The notes beneath the pieces were generated by a model. That model was not told the DNA's origin. It ran no database searches and worked only from the letters and a program-made list of their open reading frames with translations. 64,000 nucleotides of DNA, taken from NCBI GenBank assembly GCA_903844645.1, contig CAIMUP010000013.1, positions 1,428 to 65,427 on the forward strand. Reading direction: 5' to 3'. Position numbers and translations under genes: made by a program. This stretch comes from an uncultured Bacteroidota bacterium. Its GTDB lineage: Bacteria > Bacteroidota > Bacteroidia > AKYH767-A > JABDAW01. Positions 4,044 to 64,000 of this stretch are shown here, piece by piece; position 1 is the first letter of the stretch; every line of letters begins with the position of its first letter.

Positions 4044-4357
4044 GGCATTAGGAAAAAAAGCAGGGCATCAAATTACCCAATTTCATACCTTAAGTTTTTG
4101 CTCAAGGCATCACATTACCCGATGTGTGGGGTTGAGCAAAAACTTAATGCTTCACATCATCCAATTTGGAGGTATGGGAAAAAAAGTAATGCCCCACATT
4201 ACCCGATTTTGGGGTATGGCAAAAAACCTAATGCCCCACATTACCCAATGTGATGGTATGGCAAAAAACCTAATGCCCCACCTTACCCAATGCGGGGGTA
4301 TGAGCAAAAAAGTAGTGCCTCACATTACCTAATGTGGGGGTGTGATTTTCAATACAT
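4044..4357. repeat. 42-bp (2x21) tandem repeat, about 7 copies, each unit carrying a short hairpin (CCCCACATT-ACCC-AATGTGGGG type)
   Basis: The homologous 5-mer 'GGCAT/TGCNT' recurs at 4064, 4106, 4148, 4190, 4232, 4274 and 4316, exactly 42 bp apart; the ~4044 copy is only 20 bp upstream, i.e. partial. Units are degenerate but clearly homologous. The array lies in the convergent gap between trxB (+) and the symporter (-). Confidence 0.88.
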
Positions 4358-6086: not shown

Positions 6087-7532
6087 ATGATAGAAAAGAT
6101 AAAAGCATTTGAAGAAATAGCACGGCAACTGGAGCCGAATGCCCCTATTCGTAAGGGAGTCAGGAAGAAGGTGATAGATTATACAGAAGATTTTCTGGAT
6201 AACATTTATTCTCTGAAAGCCTACGAACAAACTGATGATCAAGGCAAAGGACTCTTCGATTCTCCCATTAATGATGTTACGATAGACATTGAGGAGGCGA
6301 TACAAATCATCTTCGAGAATGTGGATACGCAAGGATTGAATCCGGCTTCTGGCGGACATCTTGGGTATATCCCCGGTGGTGGCATCTATTATTCTGCTTT
6401 GGCAGATTATATGGCAGCTATTACCAATCGGTATGCAGGAATTTTCTTTGCCTCGCAAGGTGCGGTAAGGATGGAGAACCTGTTGATAAAATGGATGGCT
6501 AATATCGTAGGCTATGACGAAGCCGCAAGTGGAAACCTTACCACTGGCGGCAGCCTTGCCAATCTTATCGCGATAGTTACCGCCAGAGATGCCCATAATA
6601 TTAAAGCGAAAGACATCGAGAAAACCGTTATTTATTTGAGTGAGCAAGCACATCACAGCGTGGAGAAAGCCATCCGTATTGCGGGCATGAATGAATGCCA
6701 AAAACGCTTCCTTCCGATGGATGAAAGGTATCGTATCAAACCTGATGCTTTGGAAGAATATATCAAACAAGATCTATCCGATGGCTTGAAGCCCTGGTTG
6801 GTGATCGCTGCTGCCGGAACGACTGATGTTGGGGCGGTGGACCCCTTGGATAAGATAGGAACCATTGCCAATGAATACAACCTTTGGTTTCATGTGGATG
6901 GTGCTTATGGCGGCTTCTTCGCCTTGACCGATGAAGGTAAAACAATCCTCAAAGGCATCGAGAAATCTGACTCCGTAATCATGGATCCGCATAAAAGTTT
7001 GTTCCTGCCTTACGGGCTTGGCGTGGTCTTGATAAAGGACAAGAAACACCTCTACCATGCCCATCATTACTTCGCCAATTACATGCAAGACACCTTGAAA
7101 AATGCCGATGAATTATCCCCCGCAGACCTCTCGCCAGAACTTACCAAACACTACCGCAGCCTGCGATTGTGGCTCCCCCTGAAACTCCACGGCGTAGCCC
7201 CCTTCCGTGCCGCTTTGGAAGAGAAATTACTACTCGCAAAATACTTCTACGACAAGATAAAAACCACCAAAGGCTTCGAGGTATTGATAGCCCCGCAACT
7301 CTCCGTCATCATCTTCCGATACATCCCCAAAAGCGGCGATGCGAACGCCTTCAACGAACGCATCATTCAGGAAATTCACAAAGACGGACGCATCTTCTTT
7401 TCCTCCACCACCATCAACGGAAACTACATGCTGCGCCTCGCCATCCTCTCCTTCCGAACACACCTCGAAACGGTAGATTTAGCCCTCCAAATCATCAATG
7501 AAAAAGTAGCGTTATTAAACCTCAAACCTTAA
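6087..7532 (+). CDS. pyridoxal-phosphate-dependent group II decarboxylase (aromatic-L-amino-acid / glutamate decarboxylase family)
   Basis: 481 aa; PLP-lysine motif 'VIMDPHKSLFLPYGLG' (the S-x-H-K signature of group II decarboxylases); 'HVDGAYGG' region. Confidence 0.8.
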   Translation: MIEKIKAFEEIARQLEPNAPIRKGVRKKVIDYTEDFLDNIYSLKAYEQTDDQGKGLFDSPINDVTIDIEEAIQIIFENVDTQGLNPASGGHLGYIPGGGIYYSALADYMAAITNRYAGIFFASQGAVRMENLLIKWMANIVGYDEAASGNLTTGGSLANLIAIVTARDAHNIKAKDIEKTVIYLSEQAHHSVEKAIRIAGMNECQKRFLPMDERYRIKPDALEEYIKQDLSDGLKPWLVIAAAGTTDVGAVDPLDKIGTIANEYNLWFHVDGAYGGFFALTDEGKTILKGIEKSDSVIMDPHKSLFLPYGLGVVLIKDKKHLYHAHHYFANYMQDTLKNADELSPADLSPELTKHYRSLRLWLPLKLHGVAPFRAALEEKLLLAKYFYDKIKTTKGFEVLIAPQLSVIIFRYIPKSGDANAFNERIIQEIHKDGRIFFSSTTINGNYMLRLAILSFRTHLETVDLALQIINEKVALLNLKP

Positions 7533-8652: not shown

Positions 8653-8721
8653 AAAAATAAAATGAAAAACTATTGCTTTCGGTTTAGGAAAAATGCAGGG
8701 CGGTTTAGCTTTTATATTGAC

Positions 8722-8931
8722 CTGTTTAAAGTTTATGTCGGTCTGTTTAAAGTTTGTATCGGTCTGTTTAAAGTTTAAACAGGTCTGTTTAAAGTTTGTA
8801 TCGGTCTGTTTAAAGTTTAAACAGGTCTGTTTAAAGTTTAAACAGGTCTGTTTAAAGTTTGTATCGGTCTGTTTAAAGTTTAAACAGACCTGTTTAAAAT
8901 TTGTACAGACCTGTTTAAAAACTATATTGAC
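8722..8931. repeat. 21-bp tandem repeat, 10 copies, with alternating units CTGTTTAAAGTTTGTATCGGT and CTGTTTAAAGTTTAAACAGGT
   Basis: 'CTGTTTAAA' begins at 8722, 8743, 8764, ..., 8911, exactly 21 bp apart. The second unit type contains the 19-bp palindrome CTGTTTAAAgTTTAAACAG (GTTTAAAC core). Confidence 0.92.
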
Positions 8932-28646: not shown

Positions 28647-28854
28647 TTCACCCTTTTGAGGGATTGTTTTAGGAACTAATACCTTGTAATTTTGCATCCT
28701 TAATTACAAACAATGGATCATTACAATCACATAGCGAATACAACGGATAGCAATCACGACAGAGGCAATGCTTCTGGAAGGTTTTTCAATGGTGGCGGTA
28801 GTGATATGGATACAAATTGTAGTTTAAACATATGCCAAAAAAACTCAAACATAT

Positions 28855-29094
28855 CTTTTAGTAACAATAAGATACCTTTTAGTAACAATAAGATACCTTT
28901 TAGTAACAATAAGATACCTTTTAGTAACAATAAGATACCTTTTAGTAACATAAAGATATGTTTTAGTAACAAAAAGATACCTTTTAGTAACAAAAAGATA
29001 CCTTTTAGTAACAAAAAGATACCTTTTAGTAACAAAAAGATATGTTTTAGTAACAAAAAGATACCTTTTAGTAACAATAAGATATGTTTTAGTT
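28855..29094. repeat. 21-bp tandem repeat, about 11.5 copies (unit CTTTTAGTAACAATAAGATAC, variants AAAAAGATAC / GATATGT)
   Basis: Units start at 28855+21k, checked at 28876; read directly. The array is stop-free in several frames, which produces spurious heptad ORFs on both strands. Confidence 0.92.
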
Positions 29095-34679: not shown

Positions 34680-34866
34680 AATGTACACGTGTACAATTCG
34701 TCCTGCAACTGTGTCGGAGGCAATGTTCGGTGTACTTTGCCCCAACACAGTTGTGTTTGCCAATTCTACATGTGTACTATTGGCAAACACAGTTACTTTT
34801 GCAGAAGTACACGTGTAGAATTGGCAAACACAACTGTGTTTGCCAAATGTACACGTGTACATTCAA
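34680..34866. promoter_or_regulatory. cluster of alternating perfect palindromes (TGTACACGTGTACA and TTGGCAAACACAACTGTGTTTGCCAA) in a divergent promoter region
   Basis: A 14-bp perfect palindrome at 34682-34695 and again at about 34849-34862 with degenerate copies between; a 26-bp perfect palindrome at 34821-34846 with half-copies at 34745-34764 and 34781-34795; GTGTAC cores about 41 bp apart. Confidence 0.6.
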
Positions 34867-37950: not shown

Positions 37951-38202
37951 ATGAATATCTTTTGCTTCGGGATGAATATCCTTTGCTTCGGGATGAATAT
38001 CCTTTGCTTCGGGATGAATATCCTTTGCTTCGGGGTGAATATCTTTTGCTTCGGGGTGAATATCTTTTGCTTCGGGATGAATATCCTTTGCTTCGGGATG
38101 AATATCCTTTGCTTCGGGATGAATATCTTTTGCTTCGGGATGAATATCTTTTGCATCGGGATGAATATCTTTTCATCCGGCTTCAATACATTTTCATCCC
38201 GG
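37951..38202. repeat. 21-bp tandem repeat, 12 copies (unit ATGAATATCCTTTGCTTCGGG, variant ATCTTTTGCTTCGGGGTGA)
   Basis: 'ATGAATATC' begins at 37951, 37972, ..., 38161, exactly 21 bp apart. Confidence 0.92.
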
Positions 38203-38398
38203 GTTAATGTCTTACATGAACTTTTCCCCGTTATAAAACCCGATTTGGAGGGGTAAAAAGGGAGGTTTTTGGAAATTCTCCACCCTCCATTTCCCACTTT
38301 TAAGTCTCCATTCCCCATTTTCCATTCCCCATTCTTTTTCCATTGTCAGGAAATTTTATAGTTTTGCCCGCCTAACACTAAAATTATATCATAAAATA

Positions 38399-41251: not shown

Positions 41252-41284
41252 TAAAATGGACAAAAAGATGCTTTTTCTATTAAA

Positions 41285-41445
41285 TACGACTACAATGATG
41301 CCGTCATCTCCTACAATGATAGCGTCATCTACTACAATTATGCCGTCATCTACTACAATTATGCCGTCATCTACTACAATGATGGCGTCATCTACTACAA
41401 TTATGCCGTCATCTACTACAATGATGGCAACTTCGACTACACATT
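41285..41445. repeat. 21-bp tandem repeat, about 7.5 copies (unit GCCGTCATCTACTACAATTAT/GAT)
   Basis: 'CGTCATCT' occurs at 41302, 41323 and 41344+21k. The array fills the gap between the 40406 gene (stop 41251) and the 41460 gene. Confidence 0.92.
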
Positions 41446-41459
41446 TATTACATTAATTC

Positions 41460-43867: not shown

Positions 43868-44153
43868 ACGGCTGTTGATTGGAGAAAGTCGGCTGTTGAT
43901 TGGGGAAAGTTGACTGTTGATTGGGGAAAGTCGGCTGTTGATTGGGGAAAGTCGGCTGTTGATTGGGGAAAGTTGACTGTTGATTGGGGAAAGTCGGCTG
44001 TTGATTGGGGAAAGTCGGCTGTTGATTGGGGAAACATGGACGTAGATTGGGGAAACATGGACGTAGATTGCGGAAACATGGACGTAGATTGGGGAAACAT
44101 GGAGGTAGATTGTAGAAACATGGAGGTAGATTGCAGAAACATGGAGGTAGATG
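43868..44153. repeat. 21-bp tandem repeat, about 13.5 copies (units GTCGGCTGTTGATTGGGGAAA / GTTGACTGTTGATTGGGGAAA, decaying into CATGGACGTAGATTGGGGAAA and CATGGAGGTAGATTGCAGAAA)
   Basis: Unit starts at 43888 and 43909+21k; two clear sub-families within one array. Confidence 0.92.
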
Positions 44154-49925: not shown

Positions 49926-50165
49926 GCCGACCGGATTTGGGAAAGATGCGGTCGGATATTTCCTTTCTCCGGTCGGATATTTCTTTTTTCCGGTCGGATA
50001 TTTCTTTTTTCCGGTCGGATATTTCTTTTTTCCGGTCGGATATTTCTTTTTTCCGGTCGGATATTTCCTTTTTCCGGTCGGAGATTTCTTTTTTCCGGTC
50101 GGAGATTTCCTGTTTCCGGTCGGAGATTTCCTTTTTCCGGTCGGATATTTCCCGTTACCGACCAT
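49926..50165. repeat. 21-bp tandem repeat, about 11 copies (unit CCGGTCGGATATTTCTTTTTT, with GAGATTTC variants)
   Basis: 'CGGTCGG' occurs at 49948, 49969+21k; it begins immediately after the dgkA stop. Confidence 0.92.
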
Positions 50166-50299: not shown

Positions 50300-51691
<1,392 letters not shown>

Positions 51692-51721
51692 ATCCCAAAT
51701 AACCTTAATAATGATATAATT

Positions 51722-53853: not shown

Positions 53854-54368
53854 GTCATTTTGAGCCAAAACGGTACCTATTTACTGAAATTCGGTAAGGT
53901 TTTCCCGATATTCTCTGCATAATCCTACGATATTACCTTGATATTTGATTATATATCGAAGGAAATCTCTCATAAATAATCCCAAAAAAGACTTATTTAC
54001 TAAGAATGGTCTATACTTTTATCCAGCGAAACGATGGTTTCATCGGGCTAAACCATAGTTTAAACAGATATTAGACCTCTTTCATTGTTGTCTTTTCAAT
54101 GATCGTATAACAATCTCGGAGGGACGGCATCTTTTTTTATTCGGTAGTAAACGATGATTTATAATAGAGGTCTATTCTTGGGAATAACTATCTAAATCGT
54201 GTGAAATGTGATCTTATACAGGCAGTTTCGGTAGTAAATAGGGGTAGTAATGATCTCGTCCAGAGGGTATTTAATAGTGTTTGGAAGGGTTCTTTAGGTA
54301 ATAATAATGAATGTGTACATACATTTTGTTCGGTGTATATGCCGCCGAGTTATTACAATATAAATTAT

Positions 54369-54775
54369 CCGTCATCATATATGAAAACGGACAATCGTAA
54401 TAGTTATTATTGTATTAACTATTGTAATTATTGCTTTAGCAATAGTAAATATGACCATAACGATACCTTGGGCGATATTTTCTATCGTTACTGCAATAAT
54501 AACATATGTAAAAGGTATCCTTAGGATACCAATTATACGTTTTCATATATGATGACGGACGAAAAGGATAGTAAAAGCTGTTATCACGATAGTTATTGTT
54601 GTTATCACAATGGTAAAAGCGGTTATCACAATAGTTATTGCTGTTATCACAATAGTTATTGTAGTTATCACAATAGTTATTGCAGCTATTACAATTGTAA
54701 AAGCAGTTATTATAATAGCTATAACAGTATTCACGATAGCGATGACAAAAACTGTAAGTACATTCATTAGTAATA
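54369..54775. repeat. AT-rich degenerate 21-bp phased repeats (GTTATCACAATAGTTATTGCT-like) with a 21-bp inverted-repeat pair and a central 17-bp palindrome
   Basis: CCGTCATCATATATGAAAACG at 54369-54389 is the exact reverse complement of 54538-54558; palindrome GGTATCCTTAGGATACC at 54514-54530; 21-bp period clearest at 54579-54720. No convincing CDS lies between 53854 and 54978. Confidence 0.8.
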
Positions 54776-57781: not shown

Positions 57782-58020
57782 ATAATTTGGGGCGAAATTA
57801 GTATAATTAAGGATAATAATATGATGAAGTATTTGATAAAAATAAGGATGACAAAAGGAATGCTACACGACAAATTATTTTTTCATAAACTTCAGATTCA
57901 TCTACTAAATGACTACAATTTTTATCTAATAATTTGGAGAATTAATGCCTGCAAAACGGAACAAATTAAGAGCATAAAAATGTGGCTTCTTTGGAATAAA
58001 ATTCTGAATAAGAGGGATTC

Positions 58021-58152
58021 CGACTCGGCTGCGAATGATTTCGTCGTGACTGCGACTATTTTCATCATGACTGCGACCATTTCCGACTAGATTGCGACTA
58101 TTTTCATCGTGACTGCGACCATTTCCGACTAGATTGCGACCATTTTCATCGG
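58021..58152. repeat. 21-bp tandem repeat, 6 copies (alternating TGACTGCGACCATTTCCGACT / AGATTGCGACTATTTTCATCG)
   Basis: 'TGCG' at 58030, 58051, 58072, 58093, 58114 and 58135. The array lies between the co-directional DPP-IV and TPR-membrane genes. Confidence 0.9.
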
Positions 58153-60431: not shown

Positions 60432-61655
60432 TTACTTCTCACCTTCTAAATCATGCCCCATTTTATCCCGTTTCGTGTTGAGATAATCCTTGTTATGGAT
60501 GTTCGATTTTATTGCAATCGGTACGTTTTCCACGATCTCCAGACCATATCCTATCAAGCCCGCTCGCTTCGTCGGGTTATTCGACATTAATTTCATTTTC
60601 GTTACGCCCAAATTCCTTAATATTTGAGCACCCACCCCGTAATCCCTTTCATCCATCTTGAACCCGAGAGCAATATTTGCCTCCACCGTATCCATTCCTT
60701 CTTCTTGCAGTTTGTATGCCCTTAATTTATTCAACAATCCGATGCCCCTTCCCTCTTGATTGATGTAAACTAAAACCCCTTTCCCGGCTTCTTCAATCAT
60801 CTTCAAGGCTCTATGAAGTTGAGGTCCGCAATCGCAGCGGCAACTCCCGAAAATATCACCGGTAAGGCATGACGAATGTACCCTTACCAACACCGCTTCG
60901 TCCTTCTCCCATGTGCCTTTGATGATAGCAAGGTGCTCTTGATCGGTGTTGATTTGTTTGTAAGCGATTAACTTAAAATCGCCCCAGGCTGTCGGCAAAT
61001 TCACCGTTACTTCCTTCTCAATAAGGCTCTCTTTCGAGAGGCGGTATTTGATTAAATCCTCTATCGAAATTATCTTCAAATCGAATCGTTCGGCTATCTT
61101 GAAAAGGTTCGGCAGACGCGCCATCGTACCGTCTTCATTCATTATTTCTACCAGCACTCCCGCCGCTTCGAAGCCGGCTAAGGATGAAATATCAACCGTT
61201 GCTTCCGTATGTCCGGCTCTTCTTAAAACACCGCCATGCTTTGCTTTCAAAGGGAAAATATGTCCCGGTCTGCCCAGATCTTTTGGCATGGTTTCAGGAT
61301 TAATTAAAGCCTGAATCGTCTTGCTTCTATCGCTTGCCGAGATGCCTGTCGTGCAGCCATGTCCCAACAAATCCACCGAGATGGTGAATGGTGTTTCATG
61401 CGACGAGGTGTTCTTCGTAACCATCATATCTAATGCCAATTCCGCGCACCGTTCTTCGGTAATCGAGGCACAAATCAAGCCTCTGCCGTGGGTCGCCATA
61501 AAGTTCACAATATCAGGCGTCGCGTTGCGGGCAGCAGTTACGAAGTCGCCCTCGTTTTCGCGGTCCTCATCATCCACTACGATGATTACTTTACCTTGCC
61601 TGATGTCTTCCAGAGCCTCTTCGATGGTATTTAATTTATGTTGTACGATGTTCAT
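60432..61655 (-). CDS. ribBA: bifunctional 3,4-dihydroxy-2-butanone-4-phosphate synthase / GTP cyclohydrolase II
   Basis: N-terminal RibB region '[17 protein letters not shown]', C-terminal RibA with zinc-binding '[18 protein letters not shown]'. Confidence 0.95.
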
Positions 61656-61932
61656 GGCGTGTTTTTTAATTCTATGGCGGCGAAATTAAGAAAATTGTTG
61701 GCGTTCGATTATCCGTTCTCGATCATTCGCAATCTTTATCCAAAGATACGTTTTCTCTCATCAAAAAATACTCGGATTGGTACCAAGAAAAGCATCATGC
61801 AGATACCTTCTCTCGGTATTCATTCAGGGAATCGCGATCTGTTGGTTCAAAGACTCGTTTCTTATACACAATACTGCCTCTGTTGTATTCCATTCAGCCT
61901 CCTTTTAGCTGCTAATCGCGATTCTGAAGCCA

Positions 61933-62239
61933 AAAGTCGAGATATTGAAACAATGAATCGTACCCATTAACCACTTAATTGAAGTGAAAGACTATTTTAG
62001 TATAATGAATGACTCATTAAGTATAATGAAAGACTATTTTAGTATAATGAATGACTAAAACACTAATATGAAAGACTAATTACCAGACATGAAAGACCAC
62101 TTCATGTCTGGCAATTAGTCTTTCATATTAGTGAATTAGTCTTTTACCTTAATAAAGTAGTTAATCATTATACTAAAATAGTCTTTCACTTCAATTAAGT
62201 GGTTAATGGGTACGATTCATTGTTTCAAGGTCTCGACTT
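61933..62239. repeat. about 307-bp palindromic element: 73-bp terminal inverted repeats (2 mismatches), internal 21-bp phased TGAA(A/T)GAC repeats, and a central 73-bp palindrome with a CCAGACATG...CATGTCTGG hairpin
   Basis: Left arm 61933-62008 is the reverse complement of right arm 62165-62239. Inner inverted repeat CACTAATATGAAAGACTAATT (62061-62081) pairs with AATTAGTCTTTCATATTAGTG (62113-62133). TGAA(A/T)GAC recurs every 21-22 bp, spacings read 22/21/21/21/21. Confidence 0.9.
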
Positions 62240-62499
62240 GGAATGATAAAATGGAGGAATGGCATCCGATTATCGAGGTATTTAATAAGATAGAGGCGAT
62301 GAATAATACGATAATGACGATACCGAATCATCTGATCAAGATTCCCCAATAAATACCACCGAATACCGACCGATAGGAGGCGAAATGTGAAAACAGAACC
62401 GCTATTTTCGGTACCTTTCTCGGGAATAAAAGATAATAAGTCGCGATGAACATTCTTAGATATTCATCATCTTTATCAAGCCCGAAAAAAGGGAGTATC

Positions 62500-64000
62500 T
62501 TATTTTAAATTCTTCTTAGCCTGCTCGATAGTAATTTTTTTATCGCCACTAAAAGCGACCACAAAAGCATCTTTGATACCCGCATTCACGACCATATTTC
62601 GTAGCTGAACCGCAGTATCGTAATCCCTTACCGAACCAGCAAAATAATAGGTCAAACCATCAGCATCCTTGGTGTGGGAAATACCTTTGTTGCTTAATTT
62701 TAAGAACAGATCCACCACCTCAAACGGCACCTGCTCGCGGTATGCCCCGAGTTGCACTTTGAAGCTGATCGTAGCCGCATCAATCGTTTCTTCGGTAGCT
62801 TTAAATTCGGGTTGCTTCGGGGGTTGAACAGGCGTAGTGTCTTTAATAATAACAATCGGGTTTGCCTTTACCGGTGCGGGTTCTGGAGTTTTTGTCGGAG
62901 GAATCGGCGTAGTGAATTTCATTGGGATAACGGTCTTTTCCAACTCTCGGGCTTGGTTCAAATTGATTCTGGAACCCTTGTAATATGCAACCACAAAAGC
63001 ATCCGGAACAAGCGTCCTCGCGATGTTGTTTTTAGCTGCATCGGCAGGAGGAAAGTAATTATAAAGCCCCGATAAAAAACGATAATAACCCTTGGCAGTA
63101 ACTTCGGTATTTAATGGTTTTAATGATTCAAGAATACCAGGCGGAGTCGCATTTCCATACACACCAACCTGAACCGTGTAGAACAATCCTTCATTATTTT
63201 TAATGTTAAAAGAAGAGGTGTTGGTAGGCGTGTTGTTGTTTTGAACAGCGGTGTTAGATGCGTTATTCGGGACATCAATAGGGGTTTTGATAGCCGCCAC
63301 CGGGGAGGTTTTTACCGCATTCCTGAAGGTATAAAGATTAATGTCGTTAGCTTCTGGGGCATACTTTTCAGGATAGATATTGTTGGCTTTAAGCACCTTC
63401 GTTTCCTCGACATAAACAAACTGATAGGTTTGCTGTTGAGGCGAAGTGAGGGCATGAATTAGTAAGCCCGCATCGTATATAGAAATCCTTTTTCCATCTC
63501 TGTATGCCACCACAAAAGCATCCCGATAACCCATTGCTCTAATCTCTTTCTTAGCCAAATTAGCACTCTCGAAAGTCTGGAATAAACCCGCAGTATAGCG
63601 CAACCACCCATTAGGTCCGTCCTCATAGGTAACAGGTTGTAAGCCTCTGAAAGCATCTCCCGAAACAGGTGCTCGGAATGCCCCAATCTGTACTTTAAAA
63701 TACAAGCCATCCGGTAATTTTTCGTTATGAGGAATTGGTTTTATTTCATTGTTGACAGTCTTCTCTTTGCTAATGTTAAAGACATATTTATTGGAAGAGG
63801 TATTTGCTTTTTCTTCCTTTAGTTTGTCGTTAATAATTTTTAAAGTATCTTTATTCGGTAAGTCAGATTTGTTGGCAACAACGGTCGTTGTGAGCTTTTC
63901 TTTTAGCATTATTGCCTCCGCTTTTTGATTATCCGATACTCTTGCCAAATCCTTTGCAACAACATAAATACTATCGGCATCATGTTGCTTGATTTCGGCA
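62500..64000 (-). CDS. SPOR-repeat protein (three sporulation-related peptidoglycan-binding repeats); the N-terminus probably lies beyond the window
   Basis: Three copies of 'Y(F/T)VQ(I/V)G(A/V)(F/Y)...A......L......G(Y/I)..AFVV(A/F)' resembling SPOR domains; the frame stays open upstream of the TTG at 63948 to the window edge. Confidence 0.55.
   Translation of the reverse strand, partial: AEIKQHDADSIYVVAKDLARVSDNQKAEAIMLKEKLTTTVVANKSDLPNKDTLKIINDKLKEEKANTSSNKYVFNISKEKTVNNEIKPIPHNEKLPDGLYFKVQIGAFRAPVSGDAFRGLQPVTYEDGPNGWLRYTAGLFQTFESANLAKKEIRAMGYRDAFVVAYRDGKRISIYDAGLLIHALTSPQQQTYQFVYVEETKVLKANNIYPEKYAPEANDINLYTFRNAVKTSPVAAIKTPIDVPNNASNTAVQNNNTPTNTSSFNIKNNEGLFYTVQVGVYGNATPPGILESLKPLNTEVTAKGYYRFLSGLYNYFPPADAAKNNIARTLVPDAFVVAYYKGSRINLNQARELEKTVIPMKFTTPIPPTKTPEPAPVKANPIVIIKDTTPVQPPKQPEFKATEETIDAATISFKVQLGAYREQVPFEVVDLFLKLSNKGISHTKDADGLTYYFAGSVRDYDTAVQLRNMVVNAGIKDAFVVAFSGDKKITIEQAKKNLK

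Follow-up and report, generated by a model that had tools for sequence, protein, structure and literature searches.

The gap between ribBA and the gene of a SPOR-domain protein, in the DNA of an uncultured Bacteroidota bacterium, holds a long quasi-palindrome whose interior repeats itself every 21 bp. How did such a sequence arise, and is it a mobile element, a functional structure or a by-product of something more general? Here, we address this question within the whole 64-kb stretch of DNA that contains the element (hereafter the window), and by comparison with related loci and with known bacterial repeats. By itself, the element is a curiosity: quasi-palindromes of such length are usually not tolerated by bacteria, and this one lies between two housekeeping genes. 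Its value lies in being the clearest dyad-symmetric member of a larger pattern of arrays.

Architecture of the quasi-palindromic element

The element, its parts and its neighbours are listed in Table 1. A preliminary description, made from the sequence alone, had reported a palindromic element of 307 bp spanning 61933-62239; the element is indeed there, but its start was placed one base too early, and the true length is 306 bp. The arms had been called near-perfect reverse complements, and this was confirmed, as 71 of 73 positions pair between the left and the right outer arm, the sole mismatches being those at 61943-61944 (TA vs CC). A repeat search extends the inverted-repeat arms to 125 nt at 86% complementarity (61934-62058 / 62115-62239), and beyond the outer arms the pairing reaches 61930-61931 / 62240-62241 with a 2-nt bulge.

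The 21-bp phasing of TGAA(A/T)GAC-N13 units noticed earlier was reproduced, with six direct units on the left and four inverted ones on the right. The cores of the left array read, in order, TGAAAGAC, TGAATGAC, TGAAAGAC, TGAATGAC, TGAAAGAC and TGAAAGAC. In the right array, R1 is identical to L1 and R4 agrees with L5 at 20 of 21 positions, while R2 and R3 are diverged; degenerate cores are present in two of the four inverted units (TGATTAAC and TAAAAGAC). The units follow one another head to tail, as in minisatellites or VNTRs (units of about 10-100 bp), and were counted as 3.5-4 copies of period 21 by TRF and as six plus four by register.

At the centre of the element, the hairpin that had been pointed out is present (CCAGACATGAA / TTCATGTCTGG, with the 7-nt loop AGACCAC at 62094-62100). 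The 73-bp palindrome around it was found as well, but it is near-perfect rather than perfect, with one mismatch at 62082/62112. The centre of this palindrome (62097) and that of the outer arms (62086.5) are 10.5 bp apart, and therefore the left half has one 21-bp unit more than the right half. A gapped alignment of the two halves gave 128 matches, 14 mismatches and 22 gapped bases. It had been proposed that the whole could extrude as a cruciform or fold as a long RNA hairpin, and the predicted folds, which are far beyond chance, agree with such a capacity: the RNA fold has -184 kcal/mol (z = -27.5) and the DNA fold -121 kcal/mol (z = -24.9).

Two kinds of candidate features inside the element were considered and rejected. 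Small open reading frames (the longest of 17-23 codons by eye, none of 25 aa or more wholly within the element) were not accepted as coding. Inward-facing sigma-70-like hexamers (TTGAAG-16-TATAAT) occur in both arms, but these were discounted because Bacteroidota use a promoter consensus that differs from the sigma-70 type, and because matches in the region are no commoner than in shuffled sequence.

Table 1. Coordinates of the element, its parts, the neighbouring genes and the other arrays of the window
Feature	Position	Strand	Description
Whole quasi-palindromic element	61934-62239	.	306 bp, 29% G+C vs 41% in the window
Left outer arm	61934-62006	+	51 nt non-repetitive (61934-61984), then first 21-bp unit
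Right outer arm	62167-62239	-	inverted copy of left arm
Left array	61985-62110	+	six direct 21-bp units, TGAA(A/T)GAC core + N13; last unit forms the central loop
Right array	62105-62188	-	four inverted 21-bp units, R1-R4
Central near-perfect palindrome	62061-62133	.	33-nt arms, one mismatch, 7-nt loop 62094-62100
ribBA (DHBP synthase / GTP cyclohydrolase II)	60432-61655	-	279 bp downstream of the element
SPOR-domain protein gene	62500-64000	-	frame open to window end; stop codon 260 bp upstream of the element
TATCTTTG	61741-61748	-	match to Bacteroidota -7 consensus TAnnTTTG; 86-93 bp upstream of ribBA ATG
Other array	1859-2044
Other array	4111-4341
Other array	8711-8919
Other array	28847-29093
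Other array	34744-34861
Other array	37951-38213
Other array	41289-41426
Other array	43869-44152
Other array	49949-50152
Other array	51563-51690
Other array	54368-54722
Other array	58018-58151

The ribBA gap and its neighbouring genes

The gap had been described as gene-free and about 850 bp long. It measures 844 bp between ribBA and the SPOR gene, and none of the open reading frames checked against called genes (seven of 32-110 aa and one of 41 aa) is recorded as a called gene. The surroundings are those of an ordinary chromosome: the 40 window proteins scanned against Pfam belong to genes such as gyrA, ffh, efp and T9SS cargo, with 10 of the 40 matching no family. The protein search gave no 100% match for the SPOR protein.

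In Bacteroidota, the -7 promoter consensus is TAnnTTTG. The motif TATCTTTG, situated between the element and ribBA, matches this consensus, a match that is to be read as such only, TAnnTTTG not being enriched in the window. Thus, ribBA appears to have a promoter motif of its own downstream of the element. In the relatives, ribBA has TAATTTTG 21-32 bp upstream of its ATG and a short leader.

It had also been stated that an FMN riboswitch would be expected in this gap but is not recognisable. The absence was confirmed, as the Rfam model RF00050 gave no match at the gathering score in the whole window and none at E <= 10 in 61400-62700; the only Rfam matches obtained were generic long-hairpin ones to miRNA precursor models, far below thresholds. 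The expectation, on the other hand, was not borne out. No FMN riboswitch was found around ribBA in 14 other Bacteroidota loci either (flanks up to 10 kb per side), and thus the lack of one is normal here. What the element has in common with this riboswitch is its position upstream of a riboflavin biosynthesis gene, and no covariance-model match accompanies it.

The element in independent assemblies

An inverted repeat of this kind might be an assembly artefact, i.e., a fold-back or a chimeric join made where short reads fail to resolve the repeat. All five independent short-read contigs from the same strain stop inside the element (at window positions 61894, 61944, twice, 61974 and 62086), sister arrays likewise break or gap assemblies, and the independent confirmation covers the left half only and not the right. 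However, the two halves are not exact reverse complements, given the 14 mismatches, the indel of one unit and the TA vs CC difference in the outer arms, and the right arm runs on into unique sequence and the SPOR gene. Moreover, an independent assembly (L001) contains the left half, with five of its units and a portion of the central stem, at 100% identity, and contigs breaking exactly at the repeat boundary (61944) are what is expected of a real inverted repeat. We therefore regard an artefact as highly improbable.

Breaks of this type are frequent in the lineage. Its short-read contigs often end, or have N scaffold gaps, in 21-bp arrays and in the palindrome (L001-L005, L223-L225, L088; L224:5164-5263), and at least 8 contig ends or scaffold gaps at arrays or palindromes were counted in the fetched loci. 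Arrays and palindromes thus break the short-read metagenome assemblies of this lineage, by which the contiguity of its MAGs is biased and intergenic content is hidden.

The reading as a mobile element is not supported

The preliminary description suggested that the element is MITE-like, i.e., a non-autonomous mobile element. In its most explicit form, this would be a non-autonomous MITE with an internal minisatellite, similar to BrickBuilt, with its long terminal inverted repeats recognised by a transposase acting in trans. Such repeats, long and nearly perfect, are indeed present; the element is small, non-coding and intergenic, it lies at a synteny breakpoint, and Bacteroidota provide a precedent built on tandem repeats of about 23 nt (PMC4596501). 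However, no target-site duplication could be found, whichever boundary was chosen: the flanks read ...GAAGCCAA on the left and GGAATGAT... on the right, the inverted repeat continuing imperfectly into them (the 2-nt bulge) with no direct repeat. Nor is any transposase, integrase or reverse transcriptase family present among the 40 window proteins (Pfam). The missing target-site duplication and transposase had already been remarked upon in the preliminary description, and both remarks hold.

A search with the arm for other copies, which had been suggested as a check, was negative in the window and in the collections covered. Only the two arms, and no third copy, exist in the 64-kb window, and a 26-mer from the unique arm had 0 exact matches in GTDB species representatives and JGI metagenome contigs. 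The whole element was without a blastn match in plasmids or phages, and among 128 loci retrieved by the phased motif, not one had the unique arm. Furthermore, copies of BrickBuilt have a common unit sequence, whereas each array of the window has its own. Within the sequences searched, the result comes close to a single-copy element with no related sequences, the outcome that had been named beforehand as speaking against the earlier reading. The idea of a mobile element is not supported by these comparisons, and we consider it rather unlikely.

The comparison of the ribBA leader with that of relatives, also suggested earlier, gave nothing that could be aligned. The closest RibBA among GTDB representatives is 72-76% identical; closer relatives came from a protein collection, two with RibBA identities of 92% and 84% and a further one whose SPOR protein is 70% identical. 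Their neighbours differ, and no upstream sequence is alignable: ribBA is preceded by a divergent T9SS-cargo gene in the first and by an arginase gene 120 bp away in the second, while in the third a permease gene follows the SPOR gene after 17 bp. As no sequence is shared with the relatives and their neighbouring genes are different, the gap is lineage-specific DNA at a synteny breakpoint.

Arrays of 21-bp units occupy most intergenic gaps

The element had been linked to a 21-bp phasing theme of the window, and this link proved to be well founded. Tandem arrays of period 21/42 (or 63), each with its own unit sequence, were detected by TRF in 13 of the 21 intergenic gaps longer than 100 bp. Nearly all gaps above 150 bp hold an array of period 21 (or 41/42/63), and this is true of co-directional, convergent and divergent gaps alike. 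The pooled intergenic autocorrelation reaches 0.443 at lag 21, other lags being at about 0.27 and genes at 0.286, and its peaks are limited to lags 21, 42 and 63. The density of arrays per 100 kb is 20 here, 12 in close relatives (four loci) and 0.67 in 80 other Bacteroidota ribBA loci, the window value being about 30 times that of the latter. Overall, 21-bp arrays of unrelated sequence make up about 3% of the DNA and occupy most intergenic gaps in this uncultured Bacteroidota clade.

With respect to the source of the units, the consensuses of 12 arrays were found to have no relative elsewhere in the window at <=4 mismatches beyond chance-level matches. The arrays at 51563, 54568 and 58018 show the same pattern of a core plus a variable part as the element in the ribBA gap. 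Full-text literature yielded no description of 21-bp intergenic arrays in Bacteroidota, BrickBuilt being the only comparable case.

In the 80 unrelated Bacteroidota ribBA loci (L006-L085), the commonest tandem-repeat periods are 21 (12 arrays) and 22 (10 arrays). Units of about two helical turns may thus be weakly preferred across the phylum; that of BrickBuilt has 23 nt.

Arrays are gained and resized between close relatives

The gap upstream of the second PPIase gene (41252-41459) allows the gain of an array to be followed. Here, it has 208 bp, composed of a 37-bp leader, 6.6 units and a 24-bp tail, while in two relatives, whose MoxR is 95% and 87% identical, the orthologous gap has 12 bp and 13 bp, respectively (L219:8597-8608 and L221:8608-8620). 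By this comparison, the array together with its non-repeated flanks is a lineage-specific gain. The same two relatives carry arrays at other positions and with other unit sequences.

Changes of unit number were seen between strains. Over 20.4 kb, a near-identical strain (L222) and the window are 15 substitutions apart, to which indels of 168 bp and 63 bp are added; both indels fall within arrays (those at 37951-38213 and 49949-50152). Over 11.5 kb, a second strain (L002) has no substitution at all, and its only difference is one 21-bp gap; by the unit copy numbers (7.8 vs 6.1), this gap belongs to the array at 54568-54722. At the element in the ribBA gap, the strain contigs all break inside it, and the differences in unit number (21, 63 and 168 bp) are those of sister arrays; for the element itself, the hint at such variation is an indirect one, namely that its two halves differ by one unit. 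Judged from these alignments, the arrays are shown to be recent lineage-specific gains in which whole-unit change outpaces the surrounding substitutions, and unit number is the fastest-evolving character in near-identical strains.

Dyad symmetry recurs in phased sequence

A second, weaker dyad of 21-bp-phased sequence was found in the window at 54368-54559, with a perfect 22-nt outer inverted repeat (TCCGTCATCATATATGAAAACG) and a diverged interior. Dyads also occur outside the window. In the relative with the 92% identical RibBA (L086:6989-7194), a perfect 100-bp palindrome with 49-nt arms and a 2-nt spacer is nested in a 34-nt imperfect inverted repeat and directly adjoins a 21-bp array (7209-7502). 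TRF counts 9.5 units in this array (7284-7482) and the register span gives about 14, the range thus being about 9 to 14. At the level of the single unit, significant internal dyads or hairpins were detected in 5 of 21 array units.

The units at 4111-4341, 8711-8919 and 34744-34861 are hairpins with perfect stems of 9-12 bp (P <= 0.001 vs shuffled units); being made of such units, these arrays could fold as strings of stem-loops.

The region of the second dyad has some further features. In 54368-54760, open reading frames starting with ATGAAAACG lie in each arm and a third one starts at 54551 (MMTDEKDSKSCYHDSYCCYHNGKSGYHNSYCC...); they would encode Cys/Tyr/Asn-rich heptad-repeat peptides. Gene callers choose a hydrophobic ORF of 78-85 aa on the opposite strand, and all the ORFs of this region are putative. 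Gene orientation changes at about 53.8-55 kb from + (about 35-53.8 kb, and mostly + before) to - (54.9-64 kb), the cumulative GC skew has its peak there (1.85), and the 1.1-kb gap at this switch contains the second array dyad. The region could be terminus-like, the window being too short to tell.

A proposed origin of the element by inverted duplication of a minisatellite

Of the explanations considered, we favour, with somewhat more confidence than doubt, the one in which the element goes back to a lineage-specific 21-bp minisatellite. At a synteny breakpoint, this array and the adjoining 51 bp would have undergone an inverted duplication, and the element would not be a transposable one. Several lines of sequence evidence seem to converge on this explanation: 21-bp arrays are present in most gaps, young and hypervariable, dyads recur, the site is a breakpoint, and all mobility tests that were run gave negative results.

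The fold-back step we infer from the architecture of the element; neither an intermediate nor an empty site was found. A nascent strand would have folded back at the short hairpin that ends the array (CCAGACATGAA...TTCATGTCTGG), copied the array and the 51 bp of flank in reverse and then switched back, a process known as template-switch (snap-back) inverted duplication. Later, the interior units would have been reshuffled by unit gain, loss and conversion, giving rise to the difference of one unit in length and to the diverged middle. The outer arms, whose non-repetitive sequence cannot slip, are still 97% complementary. The pattern of the arms appears to fit this history, with 71 of 73 positions kept in the outer part that cannot slip, an indel of one whole unit, and a diverged middle. 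A fold-back duplication would also account for the single-copy status, the missing target-site duplication and the site at a rearrangement junction.

Cruciform extrusion and the termination or cleavage of SPOR read-through are plausible activities of such a structure, yet they are probably incidental. An RNA reading through from the SPOR gene would be predicted to form a hairpin with about 140 paired positions, which should stop or destabilise the transcript.

Functional explanations and the 21-bp unit length

One might ask whether this effect on RNA is the main role of the element, which would then be a bidirectional terminator or insulator, or else a hairpin that stabilises the 3' end of the SPOR transcript, and would keep read-through away from ribBA. 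The position, 260 bp past the SPOR stop codon and upstream of the TAnnTTTG motif of ribBA, would be suitable, the central stem is terminator-like on the - strand in a simple scan, and the RNA fold is extremely stable. Nevertheless, a 306-nt palindrome at 29% G+C is much larger than would be required for termination, the stem is followed by a poor T-tract (TTTCATATTA), another, weaker terminator-like site is found nearer to the SPOR stop (62376-62356), and the SPOR gene of a relative has its next gene after only 17 bp, all of which makes a main role at the RNA level quite improbable. The organisation of the units could alternatively point to protein binding, in which TGAAAGACT cores, placed every two helical turns and mirrored about the dyad, load a cooperative DNA-binding protein. 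The putative binder could be a regulator, a nucleoid protein or an iteron-type initiator; either ribBA or the SPOR gene would be under its control, or it would organise the chromosome locally. Unit positions 1-10 are nearly invariant while positions 11-21 vary, the 21-bp spacing lines the cores up on one helical face, a dimeric or looping protein would match the overall dyad symmetry, and TGAAAGAC is found six times within the element and once in the rest of the window. Against this, the motif is not in use elsewhere in the window, the ribBA leaders of relatives are short and unrelated, and the twelve other gaps have unrelated units, so that each of them would need a different protein. Between strains and species, the sister arrays appear, disappear and change in size, unlike conserved operators. 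A scan of viral and metagenome contigs for the phased motif (TGAAWGAC-N13 three times) returned more than 120 loci, but the 126 arrays with phased TGAAWGAC share nothing past the 8-mer that was searched for (position 9: G43, A36, T31, C16). As for an iteron-type origin, no plasmid Rep family is present in the 40 window proteins (Pfam), and no DnaA-box cluster was seen in the gap by eye. On balance, we consider an array for protein binding to be unlikely.

The remaining explanation concerns the unit length itself, and we hold it to be doubtful, albeit worth stating. The palindrome would be left over from, or a stage in, a process peculiar to this lineage, in which 21 bp are measured off and arrays of arbitrary sequence are seeded, expanded and occasionally folded back in most spacers. 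Rather than ordinary slippage, this process could be an enzymatic or nucleoprotein 'ruler', or else selection for phased arrays that structure the nucleoid or insulate. If this were true, arrays and dyad forms together would be a new class of bacterial genome feature. Even under the preferred reading, the inverted duplication of a minisatellite, a dedicated mechanism behind the 21-bp unit length (two helical turns) is possible. The TGAAAGACT core is much better conserved than the 12 other positions of the unit, unlike in more homogeneous arrays, and this could speak for a binding site under selection and against neutral turnover; however, the arrays at 51563, 54568 and 58018 are built in the same way.

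Relation to known repeats and significance

The nearest described case is BrickBuilt of Porphyromonas gingivalis, a MITE that encloses a minisatellite of 23-nt units (Klein et al. 2015, PMC4596501). One genome has 19 copies of it, with a common unit sequence and small terminal inverted repeats (PMC4596501). The element resembles it in its host phylum, in the strictly intergenic position, in head-to-tail units of about two helical turns without spacers, and in the non-repeated 'leader' and 'tail' segments with inverted-repeat ends that surround the units. It differs in that it is single-copy in the sequences searched, has a unique unit sequence and arms of at least 73 nt, and has its array mirrored about a dyad.

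Bacterial minisatellites or VNTRs, e.g., the mycobacterial MIRU loci and the loci used in MLVA typing, are intergenic arrays whose unit number varies between near-identical strains. Such variation was shown here for the sister arrays. The difference is that at least 12 independent loci in 64 kb have a common 21-bp length but no common sequence, one of them being palindromic at the level of the array; no description of a pattern of this kind, with many loci of common length and unrelated sequence, was found in full-text literature. Quasipalindromes and inverted duplications made by template switching during replication have been described in E. coli and yeast. Like these, the element has a short hairpin at its centre between long inverted arms, of which one directly adjoins the original flank, and it lies at a rearrangement junction, whereas its arms are mostly tandem array and would for that reason have diverged by unit turnover, the event itself being deduced here.

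Other comparisons are less close. REP/BIME, ERIC and Correia elements are families of tens to hundreds of copies, 30-150 bp in size, that have no internal tandem units. They are likewise intergenic and hairpin-forming, and they can act as terminators or mRNA stabilisers, but no second copy of the element in the ribBA gap was found in the sequences searched. Plasmid iterons, e.g., those of the R6K gamma origin (seven contiguous copies of 22 bp), are likewise direct repeats of about 21-22 bp that are in phase with the helix and lie in A+T-rich DNA. The setting here is different, as it is a chromosomal housekeeping region with no rep gene among the scanned proteins and with unrelated arrays in many gaps.

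Thus, the element combines two known kinds of sequence, a minisatellite and a quasi-palindrome, and what surprises is that a 21-bp rule holds across the clade. Should this length be due to a specific mechanism or to a function (e.g., helical phasing, nucleoid binding or insulation), this would be new biology. If the cause is instead an unusually error-prone replication or repair, the clade would be a natural system in which the genesis of minisatellites and palindromes in bacteria can be studied.

Further repeats in the window

Two other observations concern repeats next to genes. At 51521-51721, the array after the aminotransferase gene (50300-51544) keeps the reading frame of the gene beyond its stop codon (...AGDDDNL* GNDDAI AGNDDAN AGKDDNY...), and the final 21 bp of the gene are themselves a diverged array unit. 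On the ribBA leader side of the element, at 61830-61925 on the - strand, the palindromic AATCGCGAT(T) occurs twice, at about 61832 and about 61914 (a spacing of about 82-84 bp), each copy being followed by CTGAATG(G)AATAC. This pair may represent an operator pair or a degenerate repeat.
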